A stretch of DNA of 64,000 nucleotides from Armatimonadota bacterium (GTDB lineage: Bacteria; Armatimonadota; SYMT01). Location: assembly GCA_046292385.1 (NCBI GenBank), contig JBKBRF010000019.1:32001-96000 (forward strand), given 5' to 3'. The translations under genes were made by a program, and so were the position numbers. The notes below the pieces were generated by a model, which had not been told where the DNA came from, searched no databases, and saw only the letters and a program-made list of their open reading frames with translations. The stretch's first letter is position 1; the number at the start of each line of letters is the position of its first letter. Of the stretch, positions 42,396 through 63,373 are shown one piece after another.

Positions 42396-43568
42396 ATGAA
42401 GCAACGAAAGAAATCCGCGCTCGTCGTGGGCGCGCTGCTGCTTGTCACACTCCTCGTCGTATGGGCCTCCCGGGGTGCCTGGGAGCCGGCGGTCGCGCGG
42501 AGCCTCCCGGACGGAGCGCTTCACAGACTGGTCCAGGCGTGGCCGGGCTCCGGGGCCGTGCAGCTGGAGGTAGGGCGCCGCGCCTGGGACGCGGGCCGGC
42601 TCGGCGAGGCCGAGTGGGCCATGGCGGCCGCCGTCGAGCTGCTTCCCGCCGACCCGGCGGCCCGGGCGGAGTACACCCTGGTCCTTGCCGACCGGCAGGA
42701 CATGCGGAACGCCGAGGCTGCTTACCGCGAGCTCGGCGCCCGTTTCCCCGGCAGTCCCCACGAGCGGATCGTGGAGGCGAGGTATCGTCTCGCCAGCGAG
42801 GGGCCCGGCTCCGCGGCCCCCCTGCTGCGGGAGCTGACTGAGCGCGCGCCGGAGCTGGCGGAGGCCTGGTATCTTCTGGGCTACTGCGCGGCCGAGCGCG
42901 GCGCGACGGAAGAGGCGCTCTCCGCGTTCCGCCGCGCGGTACGGCTCCGGCCCCGCTCGGGGCGGTACCACCGGGAGCTGGGGCAGGTGCTTCACCGGGT
43001 CGGCCAGCTCGATGCGGCGGAAGCGAGCATCCGCCGGGCACTCGAGCTCGCACCTTCGGACGACGCGACGGCGCTGGCGCTGGCGGAGCTGCTCCTCGAT
43101 CGAGACCTCTCGGAGCAAAAGCTCACCGAGGCGGAGTCACTGCTGCAGTCCGCGCGTACGAGCGAGACCCTCCGCCTGGCGGCGTGTAAGGCGCTGGGAC
43201 GAGTTGCCCTCGCCCGGAACGACTGGGACGCGGCGGAGCGGGCCTACGCCGAGGCGGCTCAGTCCAACGGGCAGGATCCGGACGCGCTCTACGGCCTCGC
43301 GCAGGCGCTGCGGGCGAAACGCGACCCACGCTACTCGGGCGTCCTGCAGCGGTTCCGGGTCGCCGAAACGACGCAGCGCGAGGAGCGATACCTTCGGGGC
43401 GCGCTCAAGGAGCGGCCGAACGACCCCGAAACCCGCGCGCGCCTCGCCCGCTTCTACCACCGGCTGGGACGTGTTGCCGAGGCGAGGGCCGTGCTCACCG
43501 GCTCGAGCTCCGAGACCCCGCGGGAGGCGCTCTCCGACGCCTTCAATCCCCAGGAGGCGCGCCGGTGA
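42396..43568 (+). CDS. Membrane-anchored TPR protein (cluster paralog 1)
   Basis: N-terminal TM helix; TPR units such as AWYLLG...A...FRRAVRLRP; GTGA overlap with the next gene. Confidence 0.85.
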   Translation: MKQRKKSALVVGALLLVTLLVVWASRGAWEPAVARSLPDGALHRLVQAWPGSGAVQLEVGRRAWDAGRLGEAEWAMAAAVELLPADPAARAEYTLVLADRQDMRNAEAAYRELGARFPGSPHERIVEARYRLASEGPGSAAPLLRELTERAPELAEAWYLLGYCAAERGATEEALSAFRRAVRLRPRSGRYHRELGQVLHRVGQLDAAEASIRRALELAPSDDATALALAELLLDRDLSEQKLTEAESLLQSARTSETLRLAACKALGRVALARNDWDAAERAYAEAAQSNGQDPDALYGLAQALRAKRDPRYSGVLQRFRVAETTQREERYLRGALKERPNDPETRARLARFYHRLGRVAEARAVLTGSSSETPREALSDAFNPQEARR

Positions 43569-45226
43569 AGCGGCGCTCCGCCATGCTCGCCGCGGCAGTC
43601 TTGCTGCTGGGTCTTGGGGTCGCTCTCTCCAGCGGCTGCGATTCTCCGGAGCGGGCCGCCGACGCCGCGACCCCGGAGCGAGCGTCGCCGTTCAACCTGC
43701 AGGAGGTCGCCGGGGAGCTCGGACTCTCGTTCCAGTCCGGGCACGGGGGGCGCTCGCCGCTCAGCACCCTGGAGACTCTCGGGCACGGGGCCGCCGTCGT
43801 CGACCTGAACGGCGACCACTACCCGGACGTCTGGCTCTTGAGCAGTCGCGGCTCCACCTACTACCGGAGCGTCGAGGGTCGCCGCTTTGAGGACGCGACG
43901 GCCGAGGCGCGGGCCAACCTTCCCGGCTACTGGCACGGCGTGACCGCCGGCGACTTCGACGGGGACGGGGATACCGACCTGTGCCAGGTCGGCTACGGCT
44001 GCCTCGCCCTGATCCGGAACGACGGAGGGGTGTTTCGCGACGCGACCGCGGCCTCCGGACTGATGCAGCCGGAGTGGGGCAGTAGCTGCGCCTTCGCGGA
44101 CCTGGACGGCGACGGGCGCCTCGACCTCCTGGTGGGGGAGTATCTCGACTTCGACGCCGGGCCGCGGCTCTGCACCGTGGGCGAGATCGAGACGGCCTGC
44201 GGTCCCAAGATCTATCCGGCGCTTTACCCTCGGGTCTACCGGAACCTCGGCGAGGGCCGCTTCGAAGACGTAACGAAGCGCTGGGGCTTCGACACCGCCT
44301 CCGGTAAGGCGCTCGGCATCGCCCTGGGCGACTACAACGGGGACGGCCGGCTGGACGTGGCATTCGCCAACGACGAGATGCCCCAGGACCTGTTCATCCG
44401 CAAGCCGGGGCCGGAGGTCCGCTTCCAGAACCAGGCCGTGGAGCTCGGTTTTGCCTACCTCGGGACGGGCCGGGTGCAGAGCGGGATGGGAATCGACGCC
44501 GCCGATTTCGATGGGGACGGCCGCGAAGACCTGCTCGTGACGAACTTTCAGAATGAGCCGGCCGGCCTCTACCGCAATGAAGGCGGCTACTTCACGGAGC
44601 ACAGCGGGCAGGCCGGCGTTGCCGAGGCGACTTTTCCGTACGTCGGGTGGGGATGCCGCTTCTTCGACGCGGACGGCGACGGCGACCTCGACCTCGCGAT
44701 GGCGAACGGCCACATCGAGGACAACGTGGCGCGGGTCCGGGCGAACACCAGCTATGCCCAGCCTCTGCTGCTCTTCGAGAACCGGGAGGGGCGGTTCCGC
44801 CGCGTCACTCCAGCGGCGGGAGATCCGTGGGAGGAGCCGTTCGTCGGCCGCGGCCTGGTGGTGGCGGACATCGACAACGATGGCGCGCCGGACCTGCTCG
44901 CCACCAACCTGGAAGGCCCGATAAAGCTCCTCAAGAGCGCCTCCCCGGGCTACGACTGGATGGGGCTGGAGGTGCTCTCCAGGGGCGGCGCGGCACTCGG
45001 CGCCCGGGTGGTGGCCGAGTGGGACCGGGGGCAGACCACCCGGCGAGTCCCGGCCGGCGGCAGTATCTTCTCGGCCCAGGATCCGCGCCTGCAGCTCGCC
45101 ATCCCCGAGGGCAAAACGCTGCAGCGGCTGCGGGTCGACTGGCCGGACGGGACGCGGGAAGCGTTCACGCCCCCGCCGCTCGGCCGCTACTCCCGCCTGG
45201 TGCAGGGTACCGGCGCGCGGCTCTAG
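43565..45226 (+). CDS. CRTAC1/ASPIC-UnbV family FG-GAP repeat lipoprotein (paralog 1)
   Basis: Lipobox SSGC, DxDGDG.xD repeats, and C-terminal ASPIC/UnbV-like GARV...GGSIFSAQDPRL...V.WPDG. Confidence 0.88.
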   Translation: MKRRSAMLAAAVLLLGLGVALSSGCDSPERAADAATPERASPFNLQEVAGELGLSFQSGHGGRSPLSTLETLGHGAAVVDLNGDHYPDVWLLSSRGSTYYRSVEGRRFEDATAEARANLPGYWHGVTAGDFDGDGDTDLCQVGYGCLALIRNDGGVFRDATAASGLMQPEWGSSCAFADLDGDGRLDLLVGEYLDFDAGPRLCTVGEIETACGPKIYPALYPRVYRNLGEGRFEDVTKRWGFDTASGKALGIALGDYNGDGRLDVAFANDEMPQDLFIRKPGPEVRFQNQAVELGFAYLGTGRVQSGMGIDAADFDGDGREDLLVTNFQNEPAGLYRNEGGYFTEHSGQAGVAEATFPYVGWGCRFFDADGDGDLDLAMANGHIEDNVARVRANTSYAQPLLLFENREGRFRRVTPAAGDPWEEPFVGRGLVVADIDNDGAPDLLATNLEGPIKLLKSASPGYDWMGLEVLSRGGAALGARVVAEWDRGQTTRRVPAGGSIFSAQDPRLQLAIPEGKTLQRLRVDWPDGTREAFTPPPLGRYSRLVQGTGARL

Positions 45227-45360
45227 CCGGGGAGTCACGCGCCGTCGCCGCGTGCCGTCGCGGGGGGCGGCCCCGCGGCGACAGCTCCGGAGGGAAGGCT
45301 TCTGCGGTTGGAGAACTGCCGTTCAACGGAGTGATCGACGCAGTACACTGGAGGGTTTCT

Positions 45361-46046: not shown

Positions 46047-47687
46047 CTACCGGCTCACTTCCAGGCTCCGGTTCAACTCGGTGACGTACTGGGTCCGGAC
46101 GGTGCCGTCCGGCCAGCGGATGCGGAGCTGCACCGGTCCCTCGTGGTCCCCCAATCCGAAGTGGGCCGCCGTATCCAGACCGGAGAGCACGCTTCCGGAG
46201 GTCTTCACCTCTCGCGTCTGCTTTTGATCTCCTGCCTGCAGCTCGATCCGCGCGCCGAGGGCGAAGCGGTTCTCGCCGGGCATCCGGAGCCGCACGGAGA
46301 GCCACTGCCGGGCGGGCGATTGGTTCCGCAGCAGCAGCGCCTTCCCCTCCAGGTCGACCACCAGCAGGTCCAGGCGCCCGTCCCGGTCGTAGTCCGCGTA
46401 GCTCAGGCCGCGGCCGACGAGCGGAGAGCGTACCGCTTCGCCGGCCGACGCGGTGCACTCCACGAACCGCCGTCCGTCGTTCCGGAATAGCTGCAGCGGC
46501 TGCCGGTAACTCTGCTGGGTGTCGAACTGCTCCACGCTGTCCCGGACGTGACCGTTGGCGATCACCACGTCGAGCCAGCCGTCGTTGTCCAGGTCGGCGA
46601 ACGCGGTGCCAAATCCCACGTAGGGCATCGTGGCCGGGCCGATGCCGGTGGGGCCGCTGGTCACGGTGAACAGCCCGTTCCCGTCGTTGCGGTAGAGGCT
46701 CGTCTCCTGGGCGAAGAAGGTGGTGACGATCAGGTCCAGGCGCCCATCGTTGTCGTAGTCCCCGGTATCGACCCCCATCGCGCCCTGCATGTGCCCCTGG
46801 ATGTCGTAGGCGGTTCCCGTGAGCGGCCCCACGTTCTTCCAGCGCTTCCCTTCCTGCGTCCAGAGATCGCAGGGCATCATGTCGTTGGCCAGGTAGATCG
46901 CCGGCTTCCCGCTCTCCAGCAGGTCCGAGACCACCACCCCCCAGGTCTTACCGGTGTCCCGCAGCTCTTCCGGCGGGAGCGCGCGGAAGCGGCCCCCGCC
47001 GGCGTTCAGGAGGAGCTTGCCCTGGAGCGGCTTGTAGAGCTCCGGTCCGCAGGCAAACTTCACGCCGCCGGCCTGGCAGATCTGCTGGGTGGTTTCGTCG
47101 AACTTCAGGTACTGCGGCACGTAGAGGTCGAGCCTGCCGTCACCGTTGATATCCGCAAACGCGGCGCTCAGGGTCCAGTCGAGGCCGGTGATGCCGGCCT
47201 CGCGCGTCGCGTCGGCAAAGCGGCCGCCGCCCTGGTTCCGGTAGAGGGTGGAGCAGCGGTACCCGGTGAGGAACAGGTCCGGCCGGCCGTCGCCGTCGTA
47301 ATCGCCGACGGCACAGCCCATCCAGTAGCGGTCGCTCCGGATGCCGCTCTTACGAGTCACGTCCTCAAACGTCCCGTCTCCGCGGTTCCGGTAGAGCGCG
47401 GCACGCTGCGGTCCGGCGAGGATCACGTCCGGCCAGCCGTCCTGGTCGAAGTCGAAGAACGCGCAGCCGCCGCCCGCGGTCTCCAGAATGGTGAGCGGCG
47501 AGCGCCCCTGGTGGCCGAGGCGGAAGTCGATCCCGGCCTCGTCGCCCGCGGAGACGAAGCGGATCGGCCCCGGCTCCGCAGCCTGCGTCTGGGCGCTGGC
47601 CGGGGTGGCCGGGATCACCCGCGCGGGCGAGTCGCAGCCGGCGAGCAGGGCCGCCGCGGCGCCCAGGAACAGGCCGCCCGCTCTCAT
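46047..47687 (-). CDS. CRTAC1/ASPIC-UnbV family FG-GAP repeat lipoprotein (paralog 2)
   Basis: Start ATG 47687 (MRAGGLFLGAAAALLAGC, lipobox LAGC), FG-GAP repeats, HFGLG...IRWPDG. Confidence 0.9.
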   Translation of the reverse strand: MRAGGLFLGAAAALLAGCDSPARVIPATPASAQTQAAEPGPIRFVSAGDEAGIDFRLGHQGRSPLTILETAGGGCAFFDFDQDGWPDVILAGPQRAALYRNRGDGTFEDVTRKSGIRSDRYWMGCAVGDYDGDGRPDLFLTGYRCSTLYRNQGGGRFADATREAGITGLDWTLSAAFADINGDGRLDLYVPQYLKFDETTQQICQAGGVKFACGPELYKPLQGKLLLNAGGGRFRALPPEELRDTGKTWGVVVSDLLESGKPAIYLANDMMPCDLWTQEGKRWKNVGPLTGTAYDIQGHMQGAMGVDTGDYDNDGRLDLIVTTFFAQETSLYRNDGNGLFTVTSGPTGIGPATMPYVGFGTAFADLDNDGWLDVVIANGHVRDSVEQFDTQQSYRQPLQLFRNDGRRFVECTASAGEAVRSPLVGRGLSYADYDRDGRLDLLVVDLEGKALLLRNQSPARQWLSVRLRMPGENRFALGARIELQAGDQKQTREVKTSGSVLSGLDTAAHFGLGDHEGPVQLRIRWPDGTVRTQYVTELNRSLEVSR

Positions 47688-48919
47688 GGCGACACCCCTT
47701 TCGGGCCGATCCGCTTCTCGAGCTGCTTCGCGCGGCGGCCGACCTCCCGGTCGTCCGGAGCAAGATCGACCGCATTGCGCGCGCTCGCCTGCGCGCCGCG
47801 GCGATCCCCCAGCTCCAGCTGGAGCTCCGCAAGCTCGAGATAGAGCTCCGCCTGTCCCGGCCGGTTGCCGAGATTGATCCGCAGCTCGTCGATCCGGCGC
47901 AGGAGGTCCTGGCGATGCCGATAGGTAGCGAGCAGCCGCTCCGCTTCCTCGCGGCGATCGAGGCGGAGCTGCACCTGGGCGAGGGCATAGTACGCCTCGT
48001 TCAAGTCCGGAGTGGTGCGCACCGCTTCCCGGAGGTGCTCGTCGGCGGCGTGCCACTGCTGGCGCTGTACGGCGACCTGACCATGCAGGAACGGCAGCAG
48101 CGGGTGCGTCGAGCTGAGCGCTTCCAGCCGCTCGACCGCCTGCTGCGCCAGCTCGGTATCGGATCCGCCCCGGCCGGTGGTCAGGAGCATCTTGGCCAGG
48201 TTCGCCTGGATCTGCACGTCGCCGGGCGCGCGGGTGGAGGCGAGCTGCAGGGCCTGGGTCGCCCCGGGGATGTTTCCGAGGGCGGCGTGAATGCTCGCCT
48301 GGATCGAGAGGTAGTTCGGGTCGTCCGGCACCTTCGCCAGCGCCTGGCTCACGGCGGCCTGTGCCCGGGCCACCTGCTGCAGCTGGAGGTAGCAGACTGC
48401 CTGCTCATAGAAGGCGTCGGAAAAGCCCGGGTCCCGCTCCGTCACGGCCCGGAACTGGTCGAGGGCATGGCCGTAGGAGCCCTGGCGTCGATAGAGGCGG
48501 CCGAGTGCCATGCGGGCCAGGGAGAATTCCGGGTGGTGATTCACCGCCGCCTTGAGCACCTGCTCGGCCTCCGGATACTCCTTCCGGGCCGTCAGGATCT
48601 CGCCGAGGCCGGTCGCCACCTCCGGGTCGCTCGGATCGAGCTCGAAGGCGTGCCGCAGCGCCGGCTCGGCCATGTCGCCGTCGCCGCTGCGAGCGAGGCG
48701 GAGTCCCAGTTGCCGCCAAGCCAGCCGATCGGTCCCGGCATCTTCCGCCAGGCGCTTCAGCGCCACCATGCCCATCCGGCTGTAGCGGAGCTCCGCGTTC
48801 CATGGACCGAACCACCAGACCAGGCCGGCTATCGCCACCGCCGCCAGCGCAAAGGCGAACGCCGGCGCCCGCCTCCGGCTGGCCGGCTGAACGGCCACTT
48901 CCACCGCAGTGTTCGACAT
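47684..48919 (-). CDS. Membrane-anchored TPR protein (paralog 2)
   Basis: N-terminal TM helix and multiple TPR units; overlaps the next gene by 4 nt. Confidence 0.87.
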   Translation of the reverse strand: MSNTAVEVAVQPASRRRAPAFAFALAAVAIAGLVWWFGPWNAELRYSRMGMVALKRLAEDAGTDRLAWRQLGLRLARSGDGDMAEPALRHAFELDPSDPEVATGLGEILTARKEYPEAEQVLKAAVNHHPEFSLARMALGRLYRRQGSYGHALDQFRAVTERDPGFSDAFYEQAVCYLQLQQVARAQAAVSQALAKVPDDPNYLSIQASIHAALGNIPGATQALQLASTRAPGDVQIQANLAKMLLTTGRGGSDTELAQQAVERLEALSSTHPLLPFLHGQVAVQRQQWHAADEHLREAVRTTPDLNEAYYALAQVQLRLDRREEAERLLATYRHRQDLLRRIDELRINLGNRPGQAELYLELAELQLELGDRRGAQASARNAVDLAPDDREVGRRAKQLEKRIGPKGVSP

Positions 48920-50184
48920 CAGCTCTTCCCCGGTAATGCGTGAGGAGTAGATTGGATCTTATTCGCCAGTTGCTGCAGAGCTTGCTCCCGGCACTCGTTG
49001 AGTAACTTCGTGAACTGCGGATCGGCCGGCACGGTCTCCAGCGCGACCCAGCACTGCTCCGCCCCGTCGCCCGCCCGGCCGGACTTCTGCAGGGCCCGAA
49101 CGAGGGCTGCCCGGACTTCCGTGTCGCCAGGATTCCCGGCGAGACGCTGCCGCAGGCGCTGAACCTCCGCGCTGTCGGGCACCCGGCTGTCTCGCGGTCT
49201 GCCGAGCCGCGACGCGACGTCGGCCAGGGTGGGGGACCGGTCCAGCAGCGCGAGCAGCTCTTCACAATCGGGATCCGCGCCGCGCTTTGCCTTCTCCCGC
49301 GCCAGCACCGACCGCGCCTCGTCGCGTCGGCCGGTAGCAATCAGGACTTCCGCCAGCGCGGCGGTAAACTGCGGCTTCGGAGCGGGGTCCCGCACCGCCT
49401 CCCGCGCCAGCTCCTCCGCCTCGGCCAGCGCCGCCGAGGTCCCGCGCCGCAGCATCAACCGCGCCAGCGGCGCGCGGACCATCCCGGTGGGGTACCCGCG
49501 CACGAGTCCGATCCGCCGACGCAGCTTCTTCTCCGCGTCCTCCTCGCGCCGGAGTCGCACTCCCAGCTCGGCAATCACCGGGTAGAGCGTGTCCTGCATC
49601 GGCTCGTGCTCGATCACCTGCATCGCCTTGTCCCAGGCCTCCTGATCTTTCCCCAGCGCAGCCAGGCATTCCGCCCAGGTTTCCAGGCTCACCATTGTGG
49701 GGGTCTTGTGCTGCGAGGCTTTCTCCAGCAGGGGAAGGGCATCCCGGTAAAGACCGGCGTCCGCGTAGACCTGCGCCAGGCTGTAAGCAGGGTCGGCGTC
49801 GTTCGGAGCCAGCTCGGCCGCCCGGCGGTAGGCATTCACCGCCCGGGCCACCTCGCCGGCGCCCGCCGCGGCCCGCGCGTAGCCGAGCCAGTAGAGCGAG
49901 GAGCGCGGCTCCTTCTTCACGAGCGATTCCATCCGCGCCGCCGCTTCCGGGTGCTCGCCCATCGTGACGAGCCGGAACGAAAGGCGATACGCGAGCTCGT
50001 GGTCGGCCGGATCGCGCTCGGACGCGGCGCGGAGCACCGGGATCGGCGCGGAGCTCAGCCACTCCTCGCGCTGGGCCAGGAACCACTGCCAGACACTCGC
50101 GACCAACGCCGCGGCTACGACCAGCGCAGCCAGCAGCCAGGATACCCGCCGCACGCGGCGATTCGAAGCAGCCGTCATCATCAC
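48919..50184 (-). CDS. Membrane-anchored TPR protein (paralog 3)
   Basis: N-terminal TM helix and TPR units (YRRAAELAPNDADPAYSLAQ); coupled to both neighbours. Confidence 0.85.
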   Translation of the reverse strand: MMMTAASNRRVRRVSWLLAALVVAAALVASVWQWFLAQREEWLSSAPIPVLRAASERDPADHELAYRLSFRLVTMGEHPEAAARMESLVKKEPRSSLYWLGYARAAAGAGEVARAVNAYRRAAELAPNDADPAYSLAQVYADAGLYRDALPLLEKASQHKTPTMVSLETWAECLAALGKDQEAWDKAMQVIEHEPMQDTLYPVIAELGVRLRREEDAEKKLRRRIGLVRGYPTGMVRAPLARLMLRRGTSAALAEAEELAREAVRDPAPKPQFTAALAEVLIATGRRDEARSVLAREKAKRGADPDCEELLALLDRSPTLADVASRLGRPRDSRVPDSAEVQRLRQRLAGNPGDTEVRAALVRALQKSGRAGDGAEQCWVALETVPADPQFTKLLNECREQALQQLANKIQSTPHALPGKS

Positions 50185-51878: not shown

Positions 51879-51887
51879 ACTGCGCCC

Positions 51888-53314: not shown

Positions 53315-53332
53315 GACGGAGAGGACTGGAGG

Positions 53333-54160: not shown

Positions 54161-54178
54161 ATGCCTTCCTTTCGTTAC

Positions 54179-54400
54179 TTAGCGCCCGCCGTTGGCGCCA
54201 GGCCCGCCCATTCCGGGAGGTCCGGCTCCGTTGGCACCGGCGGGGGGACCGCCGTTCGAAGCCGCACCGGTGGCGGCATAGGGATTGTCGCTGCTGCTGG
54301 GTCCGGGCGCGTTGCTGCAGCCGGATACCACCAGCATCCCAACGAGGGTGGCGGCAAGGAGCGCCGCCATCGGCCTTGTGAGCCGAGTACACGGGTGCAT
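54179..54400 (-). CDS. Small Gly/Pro-rich lipoprotein (73 aa)
   Basis: Signal peptide with lipobox VSGC and a low-complexity mature part ending GANGGR; about 20 nt upstream of the DUF1559 gene. Confidence 0.7.
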   Translation of the reverse strand: MHPCTRLTRPMAALLAATLVGMLVVSGCSNAPGPSSSDNPYAATGAASNGGPPAGANGAGPPGMGGPGANGGR

Positions 54401-54513
54401 CTCTGCTTCCTGGCTCCTTTCTTGGCTCCTACTCAGTCCGCTCCACCACAGACTCAGCGCCGGGAGCGAACTTCATGAAAAGTTAATTCGGAGTTGCGAA
54501 GTTGTTTCCTGCA

Positions 54514-54537: not shown

Positions 54538-54699
54538 AATGTAATGAAGACGGATGCTCCGGCGGCGGCGGCTCGCCGGCGTTGCCGGGGAGGCCGGAAG
54601 CGGGATAGAACTTAGCGGAGTGGCTTCCGCGCGTTTACCCGGCTGTTGGCGCGGGGCAGCCTTCCTCTGAACTATCCATTCCTTCTCGGAGGTCCACCT

Positions 54700-54903
54700 G
54701 TGAGCAAGAAGATCGTCTCTATGTTGCTGGCGCTCAGCGCCATGGCCGGCGCGGCCTCCCTGCTCGTCGGCTGCGATACCGCCGGCAGCGGTGGTGGCGA
54801 GCGGCCGACCCCGCCTCCCGGCGTCGAGTACGGCCCCGCCGGCAATTCCGCCGCCAGCCCTGGCGGCAACGCCGGCGGCGCGGGCGCAAACGGCGGCCAG
54901 TAG
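54700..54903 (+). CDS. Small Gly/Pro-rich lipoprotein (67 aa)
   Basis: GTG start after GGAGG; MSKKIVSMLLALSAMAGAASLLVG|C lipobox; ends GANGGQ. Confidence 0.72.
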   Translation: MSKKIVSMLLALSAMAGAASLLVGCDTAGSGGGERPTPPPGVEYGPAGNSAASPGGNAGGAGANGGQ

Positions 54904-54932: not shown

Positions 54933-54979
54933 CAAAGCAGCCCCGGAGGTCCACTGTGACCTCCGGGGCTGTTGTTTTG
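54933..54979. terminator. Probably bidirectional terminator between convergent genes
   Basis: GCAGCCCCGGAGGTC-cactgt-GACCTCCGGGGCTGT, flanked by CAAA and TGTTTT. Confidence 0.75.
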
Positions 54980-55011: not shown

Positions 55012-56181
55012 CTACCAGACTTTGATCCAGTGGGTGCGGAACTTCAGCCCGAACGGCATGTTCACGTCCTGCTTGGGCATGTGGCAGGAGACGCAGTCTC
55101 GCGTCGGCTCGATCGGGCAAACGGCGTGCGCGTCCTGCGGCGCCGCCGGAGCGGAGCTGTGGCACGAGATGCACTTCCCGTCGTACTCCGCCAGGGTCAG
55201 CTTGGTGTCGCCGTGCGCGTTGTGGCAGGTCAGGCAGGAGAGCCTGCCCTCGCTGTTCGTGAAGCAGGGGCTCTGCGGCAGCGCCAGGCCCTGCAGCCGC
55301 GGGAGCTGCGCCTTGTTGAACGGCTCGTTCAGATCGTCGCCCGCCGGAGAGCGGTGGCACTGGCCGCAAAGCTCGGTGCTCAGCCGCTCCCGCATCTGAC
55401 CGAGACGGGCCATCTTGATATCGCGAGAGCCGGTGTTGATCGCCTCCACGTGGGCCTTTCCCGGGCCGTGGCACGACTCGCAGCCCAGCCCCAGGAACGC
55501 CTTCTCCGGCTGAATGCGCTGCCCTTCCTTGACCAGGGCGGTGGTGTGGCAGTTGAAGCACTCTTCCATCACGTCCGCGGTTTTCACCAGCCCCGAAGGG
55601 AAGAGCATGCCGCCGCTGACCTCCTCCACCTTCTGCCCCGGGCTAAAGTGCCACCGGCCCACCTCCGGGTAGAAACTAAGGCGCAGCTCCAGCAGGCGGT
55701 TCTGGAACTCGCCCATGTAGGTGACGCCGTGCTTGCCGGAGCCGAAGCCGTACTTCGCCGCGATGGTGTCGGTGCCTTCCCTGGTGGTGACGGTCTGGAT
55801 GCACTGGCCGTCCTTCACTCCGGTGACGTAGTGCAGTTCCCGCTTCGGATCGGTGACGTCGCTGGGCTTCTGGAACCGCTCTCCGTGCGTCTCCGCCGTC
55901 ACCAGGGAAAGCGTCTCCGCGTGGTGACTGCCGTCGTGCGCCGCGAACTGCTCCGAGTGGCAGGAAGCGCATGCCTCACTGCCGAGATACGACTTGCGCT
56001 CCTCCGGAGTGACCGGTCGAATCTTCGGGATCTCCTGCACGGAGGAAACCTTCGGCCCCTCCGGAGCGCAGCTCTGGAGCGCGGGCAGCAGCAGGAGGAG
56101 GAAGATCCCCGACACCAGCGACCCGGTCCGCACGCTGCGGGGGAGCCTTCGGGCCAGAGATGAGAGCGGGTAGGATGACAT
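55012..56181 (-). CDS. Multiheme c-type cytochrome, probable lipoprotein (7 CxxCH)
   Basis: CASCH, CFNCH, CESCH, CGQCH, CLTCH, CISCH and CVSCH; lipobox-like LQSC; GCESCHGPGKAH resembles c554-type domains. Confidence 0.9.
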   Translation of the reverse strand: MSSYPLSSLARRLPRSVRTGSLVSGIFLLLLLPALQSCAPEGPKVSSVQEIPKIRPVTPEERKSYLGSEACASCHSEQFAAHDGSHHAETLSLVTAETHGERFQKPSDVTDPKRELHYVTGVKDGQCIQTVTTREGTDTIAAKYGFGSGKHGVTYMGEFQNRLLELRLSFYPEVGRWHFSPGQKVEEVSGGMLFPSGLVKTADVMEECFNCHTTALVKEGQRIQPEKAFLGLGCESCHGPGKAHVEAINTGSRDIKMARLGQMRERLSTELCGQCHRSPAGDDLNEPFNKAQLPRLQGLALPQSPCFTNSEGRLSCLTCHNAHGDTKLTLAEYDGKCISCHSSAPAAPQDAHAVCPIEPTRDCVSCHMPKQDVNMPFGLKFRTHWIKVW

Positions 56182-56355: not shown

Positions 56356-57990
56356 GTGCCAGTGTTGCGTGGGCCCGCATTCGCTTTCGTCTTCTCCCTC
56401 TCCACTCTGATCCTGGCCGGGTGCGTCGGCGAACAGTCCGGTCGAGCGAGTGCCAAGACGCCGGATGAGCCGTTCGTAGACGTTACCGCCGCCGCCGGCA
56501 TCGACTACCAGTTGACTCCGGCCAAGCGTCCCATGCGGATCCTGGAATCGGTCGGGTCCGGCTGTGGCTTCGTCGACCTCAATGGCGACGGAAAGCTGGA
56601 CGTGCTGCTGGTGGGGCAGCCCCGGTGCGCGGTCTACCGGAACGACGGCGGCGGCCGGTTCACCGACATCACCGCCGAGACCGGCCTGGGGGTCGAAGGC
56701 CCCTGGATCACCGCGGCCGTGGCGGATTACGACCGGGACGGGGACATCGACGTCCTGCTGGCGGGGTATCGCCGCTCGGCCCTGTTCCGCAACGACGGCG
56801 GCCGGTTTACAGACGTGACCGCCGAGGCCGGAGTTCAGGTGGGCCGCTGGTGCAATACCGCCGCCTTCGCGGACTTCGACCGGGACGGCTATCCGGACCT
56901 CTACATCGGCACCTACGTGAAGTTCGGCCCGGAATCGAAGCAGTACTGCCGGCTTCACGCGGGGGGCGCCCATACCTCGTGCCGGCCGGTCGACTACGAC
57001 GGCGACGTCGGCGCCTGCTTCCGGAACCGGGGCGACGGCACCTTCGAGGACGTGACGCAAAAGTGGGGGCTGGACAAGGTCCACGGAAAGAATCTCGGGA
57101 TTGCGGTCGCCGACTACGATGATGACGGCTGGCCGGATCTCTTCCTGGCGAACGACGAGATGGCGCAGGAGCTCTACCGGAATCAGGAGGGTAAGGGCTT
57201 TGTCAACGTCGCGATCGAGACCGGGTCCGCCTACCGGGGAGACGGCGGGATGATGGGCGGGATGGGCGTGGACTGGGGCGACTACGACAACGACGGCGCC
57301 CTGGACCTGCTGGTCGGCACCTACGAAGCCGAGCCGAAGGCGCTCTTCCGCAACCTGGGCGGATCGGGATTCGAGTGGGCGACCGCCCGCTCGCAGATCG
57401 AGGCGGCGTCGAACGTCTCCGTGGTGTGGGGGACGCTCTTGTTCGACTACGACAACGACGGCCTCCTCGACATCGCGTTCGCCAATGGCCATGTCTTCGA
57501 CAACGTGGAAGCAGTGAATCCGCAGTCGTCTTACCGGCAGCCGACCCAGCTCTTCCGGAACCAGGGCGACGGCAGCTTCTCCTTTATCGAGAGTCCCACG
57601 CTGGCGGTCCCGATGGCCGCGCGCGGTCTGGCGTGCGGGGACTACGACGGGGATGGAGACCTCGACCTCCTGATCTCGGACATCGACGGCAAGGCGCGAC
57701 TCCTGGAGAACCGGGCTGGAAACGGAAAGCACTGGCTGCTGGTCCAGACCCGCGGGACCAAGAGCAACCGGGACGGCCTGGGCGCACGCGTGACGCTCCA
57801 CCTGAAGGGTGGAAAGCGCGTCGGCGAGGTGCGGACCGCTCGCAGCTACGCCACCGTCTGTGACGGGCGAGTGCACTTCGGGCTGGGCGACGTTACAGAG
57901 ATCGAGCGCGTAGAGGTACGGTGGCCTTCCGGCGCGGTCAGCCGGGTTGACAACGTCCGGGCGAATCAGGTGTTGGTGGTGGAAGAATGA
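56356..57990 (+). CDS. CRTAC1/ASPIC-UnbV family FG-GAP repeat lipoprotein (paralog 4)
   Basis: Lipobox LAGC, FG-GAP repeats, SNRDGLGARV...HFGLG...EVRWPSG. Confidence 0.92.
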   Translation: MPVLRGPAFAFVFSLSTLILAGCVGEQSGRASAKTPDEPFVDVTAAAGIDYQLTPAKRPMRILESVGSGCGFVDLNGDGKLDVLLVGQPRCAVYRNDGGGRFTDITAETGLGVEGPWITAAVADYDRDGDIDVLLAGYRRSALFRNDGGRFTDVTAEAGVQVGRWCNTAAFADFDRDGYPDLYIGTYVKFGPESKQYCRLHAGGAHTSCRPVDYDGDVGACFRNRGDGTFEDVTQKWGLDKVHGKNLGIAVADYDDDGWPDLFLANDEMAQELYRNQEGKGFVNVAIETGSAYRGDGGMMGGMGVDWGDYDNDGALDLLVGTYEAEPKALFRNLGGSGFEWATARSQIEAASNVSVVWGTLLFDYDNDGLLDIAFANGHVFDNVEAVNPQSSYRQPTQLFRNQGDGSFSFIESPTLAVPMAARGLACGDYDGDGDLDLLISDIDGKARLLENRAGNGKHWLLVQTRGTKSNRDGLGARVTLHLKGGKRVGEVRTARSYATVCDGRVHFGLGDVTEIERVEVRWPSGAVSRVDNVRANQVLVVEE

Positions 57991-59201
57991 AGCGGCGAAC
58001 TTCCCTCTATGCCGGGCTCGCCTGCCTGGCGCTCGTGCTCGCGGGGGTCGGGGCGTATGCCTGGCAGCTCCCGTCCGTGCAGATGGCGCTGCTGGAGCGC
58101 GCGTCGCTCGAACAACTGGAGCGAAGGGTCGAGGCGGAGCCGGACGACTGGCGCGTCCAGTACTGGTTCGGCAAGCGAGCCGCGGAATCCGGCGATTTCC
58201 TCCGGGCGGAGCCGGCGCTCCGCCGGGTCCTCGGCACCGAGTGGGGCTTCACCCCCGCCGCGACCGAGCTGGGACGAGTGCTGCTGGCGAAGGGCGAGGT
58301 GAACGAGGCGTTCCAGCTCCTCCGCATGGCGGTGGGCCGCGAGGGGCAGCCGGACGCGCGCCTGGCGCTGGGGCAGCTCTACCGTTCCCAGGGCGCCCAT
58401 CACCTCGCCATGGAGCAGCTCAAAGAGGCGCTGAAGGCCCGCCCGAACGATGCGCAAGCGCTTTACGAGCTCGCGGCGGCGCACGCGCAGGTCCAGCAGT
58501 ACGAGCAGGCGGAGGAGAACCTCCGGCGCGCGCTGAGCCTCGCCCCGAAGTCGCCGCTCTTCCTCACCGCGCTGAGCCGCATCCGCCGGGAGCGCGGCGA
58601 CCTGGCCGAAGCCGAGTCTCTCGCGCGGGAAGCCGTCGCCCTGCAGCCGGACGCTCCCGACGCGCTGATGGAGCTCAGCCGCGCCCTGGCGATGAAGCTG
58701 CCGGCGGAAAAGCACCGGCCGGAGGCGATCGCTACCCTGGAGTCCGCCCTGACCCTGGCGCCGCGCCACCCCGGCCTGAGGCTCGAGCTCGCGAAGCTGC
58801 ATGGGGAAGCGGAGAACTGGCCGGCTTCCGTGACGTTACTGGAGCAGGCGATCCAGCTCACCCCGGGCGAAACCCAGGCGTATTATCTGCTCTCGCGCGC
58901 GTACCGGGCCCTGGGCCGGACCGAAGACAGCCAGCGGATGGACGGCGTTTTCAAGCGCCGGCAGGCTTATGACCGGAAGGTCCAGGCCCTGGGAGCGAAG
59001 ATCGGCGCCAATCCGGAGAACGCGAAGCTGCGGTTCGAGCTCGGCGAGCTGCACGCCAGCGAAGGAGAGCTGGACCAGGCGGCCCAGTCGTACCGGAACG
59101 GGCTCCAGTGGGATCCGAAGAACGAGACCGCCCGCCGCCGAATGGTAGAGCTGGTTCGCCAGGCAACCCAGCGGAGAGCCGACCGTGGCACGCCTCGCTA
59201 G
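57987..59201 (+). CDS. Membrane-anchored TPR protein (paralog 5)
   Basis: TM helix plus TPR units; ATGA overlap with the upstream gene and overlap with the downstream gene. Confidence 0.88.
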   Translation: MKRRTSLYAGLACLALVLAGVGAYAWQLPSVQMALLERASLEQLERRVEAEPDDWRVQYWFGKRAAESGDFLRAEPALRRVLGTEWGFTPAATELGRVLLAKGEVNEAFQLLRMAVGREGQPDARLALGQLYRSQGAHHLAMEQLKEALKARPNDAQALYELAAAHAQVQQYEQAEENLRRALSLAPKSPLFLTALSRIRRERGDLAEAESLAREAVALQPDAPDALMELSRALAMKLPAEKHRPEAIATLESALTLAPRHPGLRLELAKLHGEAENWPASVTLLEQAIQLTPGETQAYYLLSRAYRALGRTEDSQRMDGVFKRRQAYDRKVQALGAKIGANPENAKLRFELGELHASEGELDQAAQSYRNGLQWDPKNETARRRMVELVRQATQRRADRGTPR

Positions 59202-60855
59202 CTTCGGCCTCCGGATCGGCCTCGGCGCCCTCCTCGCGAGCGTCACGGCCGCCGGCTGCGTCGCGTCGGCCGCCCGCACTCCACGCCTGGGAGCCGGAGA
59301 GACCCAGCCCGCTGCGGTGGCGACCTTCCGGGACGTCGCCGCCGAGGCCGGGCTCGACTTCCGGCTGGGCCACGAAGGCCGCACGCCGCTCTCCATCCTG
59401 GAGACCGCCCCGGGCGGCGGTGCCTTCCTCGACTGGGACCAGGACGGCCGGCTCGACATCGTGCTGGCGGGAGAGTCAAAGTGCGCGCTCTACCGGAACA
59501 GCGGAGACGGCCGGTTTACGGACGTCACCCGCGCCGCCGGGCTGCCCACCACCGGTCACTGGATGGGAGTGGCGGTGGGGGACTACGACGGCGACACCTA
59601 CCCGGACCTCCTCCTCACCGGCTACCGCACCCTGGCGCTCCTGCGGAATGTCCGGGGAACGCGGTTCCAGGACGTAACGGCGCACGCCGGCCTCAACACC
59701 TCCCTCTGGACCACGAGCGCCGCCTTCTTCGACTACGACCGCGACGGCGATCTCGATCTCTACGTCGGCGCCTACCTCGCCTACCACCGGGGAAAGGACG
59801 ACCTCTGCCAGGTCGGCCCGATTACCGCCGCCTGCGGTCCGGAGCACTACGAGGCGGAGAAGGGGCTGCTCTACCGCAACGAGGGCGGAGGCCGGTTCCG
59901 AGACGTGACCCAGGCTTTCGGACTGGCAGCGGCCACCGGAAAGACCTGGGGCGTGGCGGTCTGCGACTATGACCGGGATGGCTGGCCGGACCTCTATCTC
60001 GCCAACGACATGGTGCCGTGCGATCTCTTCCGCAACGAGAAGGGCCGGTTCCGGAATATTGGCGTGGAATCCGGCACCGCCCTCGATGGGAGCGGCAACG
60101 TGCTCGGCGGGATGGGGGCGGACTGGGGAGATGCCGACGGCGACGGGCGGCCCGACCTCTTCCTGGGAACCTACTTTCAGCAGCCGAACTGCCTGTTCAA
60201 GAACCAGGGAGACCACCTCTTCCGCGAAGTGAGCGACCAGGTGGGGCTGGGGCTGCCGACCCGAGCCTACGTCGCGTTCGGCTGCGGATTCCTGGATCTC
60301 GATCTCGACGGCGACCTGGATCTGTTCGTGACCAACGGTCACGTTCGGGACTCGATCTCCGGATTCGATCCGTCCCAGACCTACCCGCAGCCGATGCAGC
60401 TCCTGGAGAACCTGGGCACCGGCCAGTTCCGAGACGCGACCCGGGGAGCCGGAGAGCCGTTCAAGACGGGACTGGTGGGACGCGGCTGCGCCTTCGGCGA
60501 CTACGACGGCGACGGCGACGAGGACATTCTGGTGGTCGACCTGGAAGGCCCGGTCCGTCTGCTGCAGAACCAGACCCCCGTGGAATCGAAGAACTGGCTG
60601 ACGGTGCGCCTCCGCGGAAAAGGCGGCAACCGCGAGGCGATCGGGGCACGAGTGGAGGTGTACCTGAAGGGCCGCACGCTCCACCGCGAGGTGCAGCGCT
60701 CCCGCGGCGTGCTCTCCTCCAGCGCGCCTGCTCTCCACTTCGGCCTGGGGGAGAGCCAGGAGGTCGAGCGGGTGCGCGCCCACTGGCCGGACGGCACGCG
60801 ATCCGAGGTGATCCGGCCGCCGATTCGCGAGGTCTTGTCCCTGGTGCAGCGGTAG
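59185..60855 (+). CDS. CRTAC1/ASPIC-UnbV family FG-GAP repeat lipoprotein (paralog 5)
   Basis: Lipobox-like AAGC, FG-GAP repeats, NREAIGARV...HFGLG...HWPDG. Confidence 0.92.
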   Translation: MARLASFGLRIGLGALLASVTAAGCVASAARTPRLGAGETQPAAVATFRDVAAEAGLDFRLGHEGRTPLSILETAPGGGAFLDWDQDGRLDIVLAGESKCALYRNSGDGRFTDVTRAAGLPTTGHWMGVAVGDYDGDTYPDLLLTGYRTLALLRNVRGTRFQDVTAHAGLNTSLWTTSAAFFDYDRDGDLDLYVGAYLAYHRGKDDLCQVGPITAACGPEHYEAEKGLLYRNEGGGRFRDVTQAFGLAAATGKTWGVAVCDYDRDGWPDLYLANDMVPCDLFRNEKGRFRNIGVESGTALDGSGNVLGGMGADWGDADGDGRPDLFLGTYFQQPNCLFKNQGDHLFREVSDQVGLGLPTRAYVAFGCGFLDLDLDGDLDLFVTNGHVRDSISGFDPSQTYPQPMQLLENLGTGQFRDATRGAGEPFKTGLVGRGCAFGDYDGDGDEDILVVDLEGPVRLLQNQTPVESKNWLTVRLRGKGGNREAIGARVEVYLKGRTLHREVQRSRGVLSSSAPALHFGLGESQEVERVRAHWPDGTRSEVIRPPIREVLSLVQR

Positions 60856-61166: not shown

Positions 61167-61991
61167 ATGCTCGTAACAAAGAAGACGAAGCGCTTTGTCG
61201 GCTTCACCCTGATCGAACTGCTGGTAGTCATTGCCATCATCGCTATCCTGGCCGCGATCCTGTTCCCGGTGTTCGCACAGGCCCGTGAAGCCGCCCGTAA
61301 GGCGAGCTGCCAGAGCAACCTGAAGCAGCTCGGCACGGCGATGCAGATGTATCGCGCAGACTACGACGGTCTGTTCCCGTTCGGTGGCTGGTACGGCAAC
61401 AACGGCGGCAACGCCAACGTGGACCGCAGCAACGACTGGCACCTGTCGACCTACCCGTACATCAAGAACACGGGCGTCTACCTCTGCCCCAGCAGCACCG
61501 ACATCCACCAGCTGCCGAACGGCCCGGCGGACTGGAACCGCACCAGCACCGACTACATCTACAACAACCACCTGGGCCCGAACCGCTCTCCCCTCAATGA
61601 GGCGGCGGTGAACGCCCCGGCGGACTGTGTGATGCTGGTGGAAGGCCACAGCGACTGGGGCCGCGGCCCGTGCATCACGCCGTTCACCAACGGCCAGTTC
61701 GTGACGAACTCGTTCTGCCACGAGTACACCATCTTCGGCGACAACGGCTCCCTCGTGACCGGCGGCCTGTGGGCCACCGACCGCAAGCTCTGGGGTCTGC
61801 CTCGCCACAGCGGCGGTGGTAACGTGGCGTTCGTGGACGGTCACGTGAAGTTCTTCAACAACTGGGATGCCGTCGGCGCGCTGCAGAGCCGGCAGAAGCT
61901 CGAGGGAACGATTCCTTACCGGAAGCACATCGAGCCGAGCCAGAGCCGGATCAACGATCCGAACGTGGTCTGGCGCTCCGAAGGGCTCTAA
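61167..61991 (+). CDS. DUF1559-family prepilin-like protein with H-X9-DG motif
   Basis: [34 protein letters not shown] and [14 protein letters not shown]. Confidence 0.93.
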
Positions 61992-62011
61992 GTCCGGCCG
62001 GATTACGTAGT

Positions 62012-62052
62012 ATGGGGAGGGACGCGAATGCGTCCCTCCCCATTTTCTTTTT
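62012..62052 (+). terminator. Intrinsic terminator after the DUF1559 gene
   Basis: ATGGGGAGGGACGC-gaat-GCGTCCCTCCCCAT followed by TTTCTTTTT. Confidence 0.85.
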
Positions 62053-62071
62053 GTCCGGTGAGTAGATCGCT

Positions 62072-63373
62072 ATGGCTGATTCTATTGAGACCGTCTCCGA
62101 AGCTGCAGTCAACGAGGCTCGCCGCCCGCCGCGGGGCCGCATCTGGCTCCTCCTCATCCTCGGCGTGGCGATCATCTGCGGCGCCCTCGTCTTCCGATCG
62201 AGCGCGTGGGCCAAGGAATACCCGCTGAAGCGCGCTTCGCTCGAAGTGCTGCGCTCCTGGGCAGAGCGGTCCCCACGCGATCCGCTGGTTCAGTACTACC
62301 TGGGCGTCAAGAGCTACGACAATGGCCTCTATCCGGAGGCCGTGCTGGCATTCCGCGCCGCGACCACGCAGGATCCGAAGATGACGCGGGCTTTCCTGGG
62401 ATTGGCCGGCGCGCACCGCGTCCTGGGTCAGAACCCGGAGGCGTATGCGGCTGCCAAGCAAGCGGCGCTGCTGGAGCCCAAGAACGTCCCGGCGCAGTTT
62501 CTGATCGCGTCCCTGGTGGCCGAGGTCTCACTGCAGGATGCCCGGCCGGAGTACCAGAAGCTGACGCGTCTGGCGCCGGAGCGTGCGGATGCCTGGTACG
62601 GCCTCGGGATGTGCGAAGCGGGCCTGATCCAGCGCGGTGATGCGGTGGCGCCGCTCACGAAGGCGGTGGAGCTGGATCCGAAGAATGCCCTCTATCGCCG
62701 GGATCTCGGCCAGATCCTGATGCGGCTCAGCCGCTTCGAAGAGGCCCGGCCGCACCTGGAGGAAGCGGTTCGGCTCGGGCCTGAAGACGCGTCGAGCTGG
62801 TACTACGCCGGCAAGACCCTCGGGACCCTGGCGAAGACCGATGCGGAGCTGACCACAGCGGACGAGCATCTCCAGCGGGCGATCCAGCTCCTGGAGGCGG
62901 CCGAGGAGCGCAGCCCCGTGGGCGAAGCGGAGATCAAGTCGGTGCGTGCCGAGCTGATGCGCCGCCTGAATCGACTGGCTGACGCGGAGAAGCTGCTCCG
63001 CGAGGCGCGGCTGCAGGATCCCAAGACGGTCAACTACCTCCGCCAGTTGGCGGACGTGGTCCGGGCGCGGGGCAATCAGCAGCTCGCGGTGGAGCTGATG
63101 CGAGAGTACGCGGCGAAGCACGAGCTCGAAGAAGCGGTGGAGCAGATGAAGCAGCGCCTGAAGCAGGACCCGAACAACCCCGGGCAGCGGCTGCGCTTCG
63201 CGCGGCTCCTGGTGCAGGCCGGCGACATCCCCCAGGCGTACACGCAGTACACTATCGTCCACAAGCTGAAGCCGCAGCAGCCGGCGGAGGTGCGCGCGGA
63301 GTTCAAGAAGGTAGAGGAAGACTTCAAGGCGCTTCAGAAGGTCTCCGTCGTCGCCCCGGCCGCCGCGAAGTAG
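62072..63373 (+). CDS. Membrane-anchored TPR protein (paralog 6)
   Basis: TM helix, SAWAKE...SPRDPL..YYLG N-terminal motif shared with 51888..53159, many TPR units. Confidence 0.9.
   Translation: MADSIETVSEAAVNEARRPPRGRIWLLLILGVAIICGALVFRSSAWAKEYPLKRASLEVLRSWAERSPRDPLVQYYLGVKSYDNGLYPEAVLAFRAATTQDPKMTRAFLGLAGAHRVLGQNPEAYAAAKQAALLEPKNVPAQFLIASLVAEVSLQDARPEYQKLTRLAPERADAWYGLGMCEAGLIQRGDAVAPLTKAVELDPKNALYRRDLGQILMRLSRFEEARPHLEEAVRLGPEDASSWYYAGKTLGTLAKTDAELTTADEHLQRAIQLLEAAEERSPVGEAEIKSVRAELMRRLNRLADAEKLLREARLQDPKTVNYLRQLADVVRARGNQQLAVELMREYAAKHELEEAVEQMKQRLKQDPNNPGQRLRFARLLVQAGDIPQAYTQYTIVHKLKPQQPAEVRAEFKKVEEDFKALQKVSVVAPAAAK

Follow-up and report, generated by a model that had tools for sequence, protein, structure and literature searches.

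A cluster of TPR, CRTAC1-type propeller and DUF1559 genes in an Armatimonadota genome, probably assembled from copies of one envelope module

In a 64-kb window from contig C19 of an Armatimonadota genome (G000, the host genome, of a soil or hot-spring bacterium; 7.04 Mb in 91 contigs, 98% complete, about 69% G+C), the 21-kb interval between clpC (39724–42207) and radA (from 63427) holds genes for five propellers of the CRTAC1 type, six tetratricopeptide repeat (TPR) proteins, two DUF1559 proteins, a 199-amino-acid anchored protein and one cytochrome, together with two tiny lipoprotein open reading frames (ORFs), as identified with Pfam, NCBIfam and a scan for small ORFs. We propose that this cluster probably consists of old paralogous copies of a single, so far undescribed envelope module that combines a TPR hub, a propeller, a pseudopilin partner and an optional cytochrome; this judgement applies to the module as described and not to its substrate. 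By its CRTAC1 genes, the closest named kin of the host are metagenome-assembled genomes (MAGs) of the Chthonomonadaceae, Armatimonadota. The window means the whole 64-kb stretch, and plain coordinates are positions in it; C-numbers denote contigs, G-numbers compared genomes, L-numbers CRTAC1 loci and P-numbers longer relatives of the proteins under study. The features of the interval, with propellers A to E also called CRTAC-A to CRTAC-E, are the following.

42396..43568, plus strand: T1, TPR protein of 390 amino acids with a single N-terminal anchor (hydrophobic residues 7–25); TPR_CcmH_CycH 76 bits (cut-off 42); overlaps the start of CRTAC-A by 4 nucleotides
43565..45226, plus strand: propeller A, 553 amino acids, non-canonical lipobox LSSGC; FG-GAP_3 at 153 bits and UnbV_ASPIC at 41 bits
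45361..45960, plus strand: anchored protein of 199 amino acids, possibly DUF1559-like without a prepilin leader; structural neighbour in the ESM Atlas
46047..47687, minus strand: propeller B, 546 amino acids, lipobox LAGC; FG-GAP_3 and UnbV_ASPIC (Pfam)
47684..48919, minus strand: T2, 411 amino acids; Pfam TPR, single anchor; 4-nucleotide overlap with CRTAC-B
48919..50184, minus strand: T3, 421 amino acids; Pfam TPR, single anchor; overlaps of 4 nucleotides with CRTAC-C and 1 nucleotide with T2
50181..51878, minus strand: propeller C, 565 amino acids, signal peptide without lipobox; FG-GAP_3 and UnbV_ASPIC (Pfam)
51888..53159, minus strand: T4, 423 amino acids; Pfam TPR, single anchor
53333..54160, minus strand: DUF1559 prepilin-like protein 1 (DUF1559-1), 275 amino acids; N_methyl and SBP_bac_10; first in a strict triad of DUF1559, T4 and CRTAC-C; RNA-library contig 53307–54443
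54179..54400, minus strand: tiny Gly/Pro-rich lipoprotein ORF of 73 amino acids, VSGC; 19 nucleotides upstream of DUF1559-1 and on the same RNA-library contig
54646..54903, plus strand: tiny Gly/Pro-rich lipoprotein ORF of up to 85 amino acids, start uncertain, LVGC; from the small-ORF scan and its lipobox
54936..54973, two-way: terminator-like hairpin of 16 and 14 pairs between the lipoprotein ORF at 54646 and the cytochrome gene; consensus match only
55012..56181, minus strand: heptahaem c-type cytochrome, 389 amino acids, lipobox-like LQSC; 7 CXXCH; Cytochrome_C554 and other multihaem Pfam families
56356..57990, plus strand: propeller D, 544 amino acids, lipobox LAGC; FG-GAP_3 and UnbV_ASPIC (Pfam); divergent from the cytochrome gene
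57987..59201, plus strand: T5, 404 amino acids; Pfam TPR, single anchor; modelled with CRTAC-E
59185..60855, plus strand: propeller E, 556 amino acids, lipobox AAGC; FG-GAP_3 and UnbV_ASPIC (Pfam); structure modelled
61167..61991, plus strand: DUF1559 prepilin-like protein 2 (DUF1559-2), 274 amino acids; N_methyl and SBP_bac_10; RNA-library contigs 61304–61937
62012..62043, plus strand: terminator-like hairpin of 14 pairs, 3′ of DUF1559-2; consensus match only
62072..63373, plus strand: T6, 433 amino acids; Pfam TPR, single anchor; follows DUF1559-2

This inventory agrees with an earlier reading of the bare sequence (the original prediction), which had listed five propellers, six TPR proteins, two DUF1559 proteins and a seven-haem cytochrome: the Pfam families stand above their curated cut-offs and the cytochrome has seven CXXCH motifs. 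The two tiny lipoproteins of that reading correspond to the ORFs with VSGC and LVGC lipoboxes, and the stop/start overlaps that it had pointed out recur in the ORF coordinates, with 4 nucleotides at 43565, 47684, 50181 and 57987 and 17 nucleotides at 59185; T3 and T2 overlap by a single nucleotide at 48919. Gene direction and the terminator-like hairpins suggest the likely transcription units, which are T1, CRTAC-A and the 199-amino-acid protein (plus strand); the 73-amino-acid lipoprotein, DUF1559-1, T4, CRTAC-C, T3, T2 and CRTAC-B (minus strand); the 85-amino-acid lipoprotein (plus strand); the cytochrome alone (minus strand); CRTAC-D, T5, CRTAC-E and DUF1559-2 (plus strand); and T6 alone (plus strand). 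A promoter scan returned 0 sites. Two metatranscriptome runs from one study contain contigs 90–99% alike to the DUF1559 genes, the 73-amino-acid lipoprotein ORF, two junctions and several CRTAC1 and TPR genes; because these contigs are assemblies from a relative, may include carried-over DNA and have a depth that cannot rank genes, we base no claim of expression or co-expression on them.

All five propellers combine FG-GAP repeats with a C-terminal UnbV_ASPIC domain above the Pfam cut-offs, which is the architecture of the CRTAC1 family; NCBIfam contains no model naming CRTAC1 proteins. Four lipobox-like sites had been claimed among them: those of B, D and E are canonical, whereas the LSSGC of A is doubtful and C has none, leaving three clear sites and one doubtful one. 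The structural model of CRTAC-E, with a predicted local distance difference test score (pLDDT) of 92 and a predicted template modelling score (pTM) of 0.89, is confident except at residues 1–40. Its best solved counterpart is murine CRTAC1 (9ETN; Foldseek E 1.6e-30, template modelling score (TM) 0.70), which assigns it the CRTAC1 fold, followed at E values of about 1e-9 to 1e-10 by fungal N-acetylglucosamine (GlcNAc) lectins, integrin alpha chains and a sugar dehydratase. The FG-GAP propeller and the UnbV/ASPIC domain are common to the murine and the window proteins (profile match 4.1e-38). Unlike vertebrate CRTAC1, to which identity is about 20%, the bacterial proteins are lipoproteins whose genes pair with TPR genes; Pfam matched no EGF-type domain in the window proteins, and different residues of the murine chain align with the bacterial ANGH motif. 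Copy numbers of bacterial CRTAC1 in Armatimonadota range from 10 to 23 per genome. The six TPR proteins each have exactly one N-terminal hydrophobic segment, with 3–7 Lys or Arg residues ahead of it.

Two window proteins matched the DUF1559 family PF07596 at 43.8 and 62.2 bits (gathering score 23.3). Both carry a prepilin leader, visible in the sequence as GFTLIELL (PF07963, 25.9 and 25.8 bits against 21.2; TIGR02532, 31.5 and 27.5 bits against 16.3), and the H-X9-DG C terminus (TIGR04294, 33.1 and 30.6 bits against 19). The leader and the long N-terminal helix liken them to GspG/PulG and type IV pilins, and one relative is named 'DUF1559 family PulG-like putative transporter' by its source. 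The GspG equivalog TIGR01710, however, reached 39.5 and 41.8 bits, below its cut-off of 88.85, with a match to the N-terminal 55 residues alone, and unlike GspG/PulG the DUF1559 proteins of the cluster are encoded outside gsp/pil operons, have a larger, variable head with the H-X9-DG end and are among 43 paralogues. Residues 13–36 are invariant in 37 of 37 sequences, with a mean identity over all columns of 22%; judged from these alignments, an invariant helix with variable heads would fit one common assembly machine that accommodates many different heads. The model of DUF1559-2 is weak (pLDDT 67) and consists of a helix at 15–65 and a small sheet. The 199-amino-acid protein, previously taken for a pilin-like relative, lacks a G/FTLIE leader and any Pfam match and reached only E 1.4 with our own DUF1559 hidden Markov model (HMM); its ESM Atlas neighbour belongs to an N_methyl/DUF1559 cluster (TM 0.59), so the kinship stands as a lead only. 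At a distance of 40 kb upstream from the cluster, the window has a third DUF1559 gene (955–1932, minus strand, 326 amino acids, GFTLIELL leader), adjacent to unrelated ORFs.

The cytochrome has the generic marks of a multihaem c-type cytochrome, namely seven CXXCH motifs, a hydrophobic segment at 17–35 and the LQSC site. The named decahaem families DmsE, GSU2203 and OmcA/MtrC gave 56, 42 and 19 bits against cut-offs of 325, 192 and 209, and no NCBIfam equivalog reached its cut-off. A haem-rich core at residues 205–277 resembles 6I5B (local sequence match 4.9e-13), whose PDB copy is labelled 'Uncharacterized protein' and which we take to be OcwA, and also OmhA (6QVM; 6e-4); the alignment spans about 70 residues, and the window protein differs from both in its seven haems and lipobox. 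Homologues are present in 6 of 6 genomes of the same family and in 21 of 41 genomes overall. In G031, five heptahaem cytochrome copies stand in tandem (C4:285198–290668).

Neighbourhoods in the host genome were counted with HMMs built from the window paralogues and run on all six-frame ORFs, which gave totals of 15 CRTAC1, 43 DUF1559 (at least 60 bits), 28 TPR-family and 5 cytochrome genes. A TPR-family gene lies no more than 3 kb from 13 of the 15 CRTAC1 genes (chance 0.035 per gene), a DUF1559 gene from 9 (0.053) and a cytochrome gene from 3 (0.006); P values for these counts are overstated because kin copies are not independent. The CRTAC1 genes form eight loci, six with TPR, six with DUF1559, three with the cytochrome and one, on C23, without any partner; a seventh locus, on C16, has a 758-amino-acid protein with five CXXCH motifs and TPR directly upstream of CRTAC1. 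At two host loci the CRTAC1 and TPR genes are followed by an anchored protein: a Redoxin/AhpC-TSA protein on C3 (L005:7212–7880) and, on C27, one without a Pfam match (L003:16370–17038) that resembles it at BLASTP E 3e-8.

The association extends beyond the host. In six further Armatimonadota genomes, 40 regions around UnbV matches contain 43 full-length CRTAC1 genes, of which 24 are immediately preceded by a TPR gene, 16 conform to the strict co-directional order DUF1559, TPR, CRTAC1, and 27 have DUF1559 within 3.5 kb, against a chance expectation of at most 0.08–0.19 per gene, a bound calculated from candidate counts that are themselves an upper bound on DUF1559 copy number. The small genome G009 keeps its TPR–CRTAC1 pairs, with DUF1559 beside 0 of 7. 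We also collected 79 CRTAC1 loci, one genome per species, the largest number from Acidobacteriota and the others from Armatimonadota, Latescibacterota, Poribacteria, Planctomycetota, Gemmatimonadota, Rhodothermales and one gammaproteobacterium. Across these phyla, 48 of 81 CRTAC1 genes with flanks of at least 1.8 kb have an adjacent same-strand TPR gene, upstream in 39 cases and downstream in 13; within these loci, DUF1559 is confined to Armatimonadota (2 of 4 loci) and Planctomycetota (7 of 11). Outer-membrane barrels of about 1100 amino acids (OMP_b-brl_4 and CarboxypepD_reg) lie near CRTAC1 in 20 of the 79 loci, for example at L042:3462–6797 in a Bryobacterales MAG, and none occurs in the window. 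In the host and in the six Armatimonadota genomes, the HMM-based neighbourhood statistics thus exceed expectation, in line with the original prediction of clustering beyond what copy number alone would produce.

The partners have also diverged together. Among 20 strict triads from seven genomes, Mantel correlations were 0.76 between DUF1559 head and TPR, 0.66 between DUF1559 head and CRTAC1 and 0.68 between TPR and CRTAC1, each reached by 0 of 5000 shuffles. For 36 TPR–CRTAC1 pairs r was 0.43 (0 of 5000 shuffles), and for seven pairs of the host genome it was 0.72, equalled by 1 of 5040 orderings. A FastTree phylogeny with 147 CRTAC1 sequences places all five window copies closer to genes from other genomes than to one another, and on this ground we regard the cluster as a collection of old paralogues and not as the product of a recent tandem burst. 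The same interval in genomes of the same family contains two UnbV matches in 7.5 kb in G001 (C26:6336–16878) and three CRTAC1 genes in 11.9 kb in G005 (C6:401208–416116); with two and three in kin against five in the window, the clpC–radA interval appears to be a growing site for modules. In G027 and G031, clpC and radA are far apart.

Gene fusions link the same families. We examined the 120 best longer relatives each of CRTAC-E, the cytochrome and DUF1559. Those of CRTAC-E comprised 19 CRTAC1–TPR, 11 CRTAC1–TPR–CRTAC1-like and 3 TPR–CRTAC1 proteins (33 with TPR), the remainder being multi-propeller proteins. In two of the TPR–CRTAC1 proteins, P0024 and P0028, the N-terminal anchor of the TPR part is retained and a Pro/Ser linker takes the place of the propeller signal peptide; P0039, which retains a signal peptide, may stem from a merged gene call. 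The longer relatives of the cytochrome comprised 113 cytochrome–TPR proteins, one TPR–cytochrome, one cytochrome–CRTAC1 and five with cytochrome only, and 109 of the 120 have seven CXXCH motifs. The cytochrome–CRTAC1 protein, P0243, consists of an anchor, seven CXXCH motifs and a propeller, and cytochrome–TPR fusions stand directly upstream of CRTAC1 in L032, L049 and L054. Since CRTAC1–TPR, cytochrome–TPR and cytochrome–CRTAC1 proteins were all found, every pairing of cytochrome, TPR and propeller is fused somewhere. No protein among the 120 best longer DUF1559 relatives matched our own CRTAC1 or cytochrome HMMs. Several longer DUF1559 relatives (P0125, P0127, P0128, P0134, P0180, P0211 and P0217) have GntR or LacI DNA-binding domains together with periplasmic-binding-protein-like domains ahead of the prepilin motif, and in these a gene for a sugar-type regulator may have been called as one with a DUF1559 gene.

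For a structural view of the pairing, T5 residues 27–404 were modelled with CRTAC-E residues 26–556, each with its own 36-row alignment. The pair scored 0.84, 0.83 and 0.82, against 0.00 for each of three controls. In calibration, 116 of 157 solved complexes attained the mark, as did 2 of 215 mismatched pairs, counts that are only roughly valid here because the alignments were self-supplied. The runs had at least 86% of contacts in common, with a partner pLDDT of at least 87. The modelled contact involves TPR residues 139–334 and, on CRTAC-E, the loop 294–305 together with 331–332, 345–360, 394–397 and 414. The model supports binding and does not show it. Taken together, neighbourhood statistics, co-divergence and fusions sustain the original view that these families form one linked kit; with the complex model, they also uphold a TPR–propeller core with the pilin-like protein and the cytochrome as partners. 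The proposed site of action at the cell surface fares less well: because the fused forms P0024, P0028 and P0243 keep inner-membrane anchors, we favour the periplasmic side of the inner membrane.

Several observations weigh against a dedicated module of this composition. The modelled interface does not exceed the rest of each protein in conservation (TPR, 0.29 against 0.33; CRTAC1, 0.39 against 0.54), which fits either paralogue-specific pairing or merely exposed surface and is no support in itself; moreover, the controls were three unrelated proteins, and TPR grooves accept many loops. By HMM, 33 of the 81 cross-phylum CRTAC1 genes have no adjacent TPR gene. Searched against solved structures, the DUF1559-2 model had no match at E ≤ 0.001, and its N-terminal helix alone overlays pilins. 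DUF1559–TPR 'fusions' number 2 of 120; in both, the TPR part retains an anchor of its own, and both may result from merged gene calls. Nor is DUF1559 confined to the module: about 38 genes were called in the host genome, six of them followed by this TPR family, and for others the next same-strand gene encodes a propeller of the PQQ_2 or Kelch type, a WG-repeat protein, a GH39 protein or another exported protein. Three PepSY_TM genes lie beside host DUF1559 genes, two downstream and one upstream (C2:93172–94356, C43:42002–43270 and C80:7323–8507). As for the cytochrome, two of the five host paralogues lie away from CRTAC1, cytochrome-adjacent CRTAC1 genes are dispersed over the tree without forming a clade, and G027, G012 and G010 (99, 99 and 97% complete; 11, 11 and 10 UnbV matches) gave no match to the cytochrome, PF13435 or PF09699. 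Because three near-complete relatives with 10–11 CRTAC1 genes gave no match, we treat the cytochrome as optional. TPR–CRTAC1 is the commonest partner of DUF1559 in the host genome and not the sole one. The PQQ_2 propeller is BamB-like (C16:75768–77312) and the Kelch propeller lies at C33:16685–18529; their position after DUF1559 genes suggests that DUF1559 pairs with exported propellers generally. One of the three PepSY_TM proteins has a weak cytochrome b561 match.

Weighing both sides, we consider it very likely that TPR protein and propeller form a physical pair. DUF1559 is a likely functional partner of the module, and the cytochrome, a shade less surely, is a partner in this genome. In the proposed module, the TPR hub would have its N-terminal helix in the inner membrane and its solenoid in the periplasm, as charge and hydrophobicity indicate, and its concave face would, as modelled, grip a loop on the surface of the propeller, which is of the calcium-type FG-GAP kind and carries a UnbV domain at its C terminus. 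Such pairing would hold a mostly lipoprotein propeller close to the inner membrane. To judge by its fold, which recalls CRTAC1, fungal GlcNAc lectins and integrin alpha, the propeller would be the ligand-binding part; a glycan or polymer as its ligand is a tentative suggestion, and redox action on the bound ligand a more doubtful one. The DUF1559 gene comes first in the unit in Armatimonadota and Planctomycetota, and the variable head of its protein diverges in parallel with the TPR and propeller of the unit, whereas the N-terminal helix is the same in all copies. After prepilin-peptidase cleavage this helix should dock into one of the host's type II secretion or type IV pilus machines, for which ATPases, secretins and a prepilin peptidase are encoded on other contigs; this may couple the unit to a pseudopilus that hands over captured material or moves the propeller. 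The cytochrome, fused to the TPR arm in most lineages, would wire the TPR–propeller unit to electron transfer.

An alternative that we hold to be unlikely makes the CRTAC1 lipoprotein a secretion cargo, a surface adhesin or lectin exported by type II secretion, with DUF1559 as its cargo-specific pseudopilin, TPR as a periplasmic chaperone or dock, and, in keeping with the original prediction, the cell surface as the site of action. The prepilin leader and partial GspG match of DUF1559 speak for this, as do the lipobox-like sites in four of the five propellers, their lectin-like fold, and the exported propellers and glycosidase preceded by other DUF1559 genes. The host genome also encodes eight full-length T2SSE ATPases, six secretins and one prepilin peptidase, although all of these lie on other contigs and the window has no gsp genes. 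Acidobacteriota and other phyla, moreover, have TPR–CRTAC1 pairs without DUF1559 at the examined loci, and the fusions P0024, P0028 and P0243 are anchored in the inner membrane, so that their release is impossible.

Parts of the same kinds occur in Myxococcus xanthus, where, in the excerpts of the source available (PMC8833165), minor pilins, a calcium-dependent PilY1 propeller and the c-type cytochrome TfcP are encoded together and TfcP supports calcium binding by PilY1. The window likewise has a pilin-like protein and a calcium-type propeller besides its c-type cytochrome. That it encodes a PilY1-like adhesin, in which propeller and DUF1559 proteins would sit at a type IV pilus tip while the cytochrome aids calcium binding, strikes us as quite improbable. 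The Pfam scan at E ≤ 0.01 gave no PilY1/PilC family match, each unit has one DUF1559 gene against four minor pilins, and the propellers are mostly lipoproteins, some of whose relatives are fused to membrane anchors; the TPR hub is a further difference from the Myxococcus clusters as those excerpts present them. TfcP is a small cytochrome, whereas that of the window has seven haems.

TPR_CcmH_CycH exceeded its 42-bit cut-off in five of the six window TPR proteins (44–76 bits), which could mark them as CcmI/CycH-like apocytochrome chaperones for cytochrome maturation or haem handling, with the other genes as bystanders; thioredoxin-like anchored proteins at two other loci and the many cytochrome–TPR fusions would suit such a role. 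Yet TPR Pfam models cross-match widely, many of them outscoring this one on the same residues; TPR proteins pair one-to-one with propellers (six TPR and five CRTAC1 against one cytochrome); and G027, G012 and G010 keep triads despite having no cytochrome match, all of which makes this explanation highly improbable. CcmI/CycH proteins have two membrane helices, a cytoplasmic loop and a ccm gene context; the window TPR proteins, with one hydrophobic segment each and CRTAC1 genes as neighbours, do not show this arrangement. Finally, that there is no system, and that four multi-copy families (15 CRTAC1, 43 DUF1559, 28 TPR and 5 cytochrome genes) have come together by chance or recent tandem duplication, is scarcely credible given an enrichment far above chance, the fusions, the co-divergence of triads, a gene order kept across families of the phylum and in Planctomycetota, and window propellers that are each nearer to other genomes' genes than to one another.

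The linked TPR–propeller–DUF1559 module can be assigned to no known system, falling short of GspG, PilY1, the named decahaem families, CcmI and SusC/D. No SusC/SusD-like pair, as expected of a polysaccharide utilisation locus, is present among the scanned window genes. In BamB/BamD and TolB/CpoB, a TPR protein and a beta-propeller act jointly in the periplasm; the window proteins are not members of these families, with NCBIfam YbgF and other matches far under their cut-offs. Hydrazine-synthase-like clusters of non-anammox bacteria, in the excerpts available of PMC12758564, flank a CRTAC1 family gene and include haem proteins and, in some clades, ATP-binding cassette (ABC) substrate-binding genes. 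Similar arrangements are an HZS_alpha middle-domain ORF between two CRTAC1 genes in a Solibacteraceae MAG (L027:18398–19822) and, judged by ORF starts only, the lone C23 CRTAC1 gene with ABC-type neighbours; unlike the clusters in those excerpts, the window has no HZS-like genes, and its CRTAC1 partners are TPR, DUF1559 and a heptahaem cytochrome. Elsewhere in the window, four paralogous ORFs of about 280 amino acids (24738–28627; three on the minus strand and one on the plus strand) have similar N termini of the form '...L(I/V)T(N/S)...GGVYLL(D/N/E)...'.

Our search of the literature on DUF1559, UnbV, bacterial CRTAC1 and H-X9-DG/PulG-like proteins, with bioRxiv supplements and subscription journals outside its scope, found no description of the module. 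In Planctomycetota, few paralogue families are larger than DUF1559, with 74 genes in one species (PMC2754498) and 68, two of them essential, in a second (PMC10632474); the excerpts available of the DUF1559 literature give paralogue counts and expression only. New here are the conserved DUF1559–TPR–CRTAC1 order, the evidence of co-divergence, a tally for each of three fusion types, a model of the TPR–propeller complex and the dispensability of the cytochrome.

More speculatively, and we think improbably in its full form, the module could be a hitherto unrecognised, phylum-spanning periplasmic machine in which the TPR arm docks interchangeable calcium propellers to the heptahaem cytochrome and, in Armatimonadota and Planctomycetota, also to dedicated DUF1559 pseudopilins, so that a retractile or piston-like fibre would bring external polymer or mineral to a propeller for binding and oxidation or reduction. 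If true, two large families, DUF1559 and bacterial CRTAC1, would gain a first function. The analysis indicates that both are passed on, duplicated and fused together with a TPR hub and a heptahaem cytochrome as a single unit. The concrete modelled interface makes the function of the module open to test, and a redox link, if there is one, would constitute a new periplasmic electron-transfer route in abundant soil phyla.

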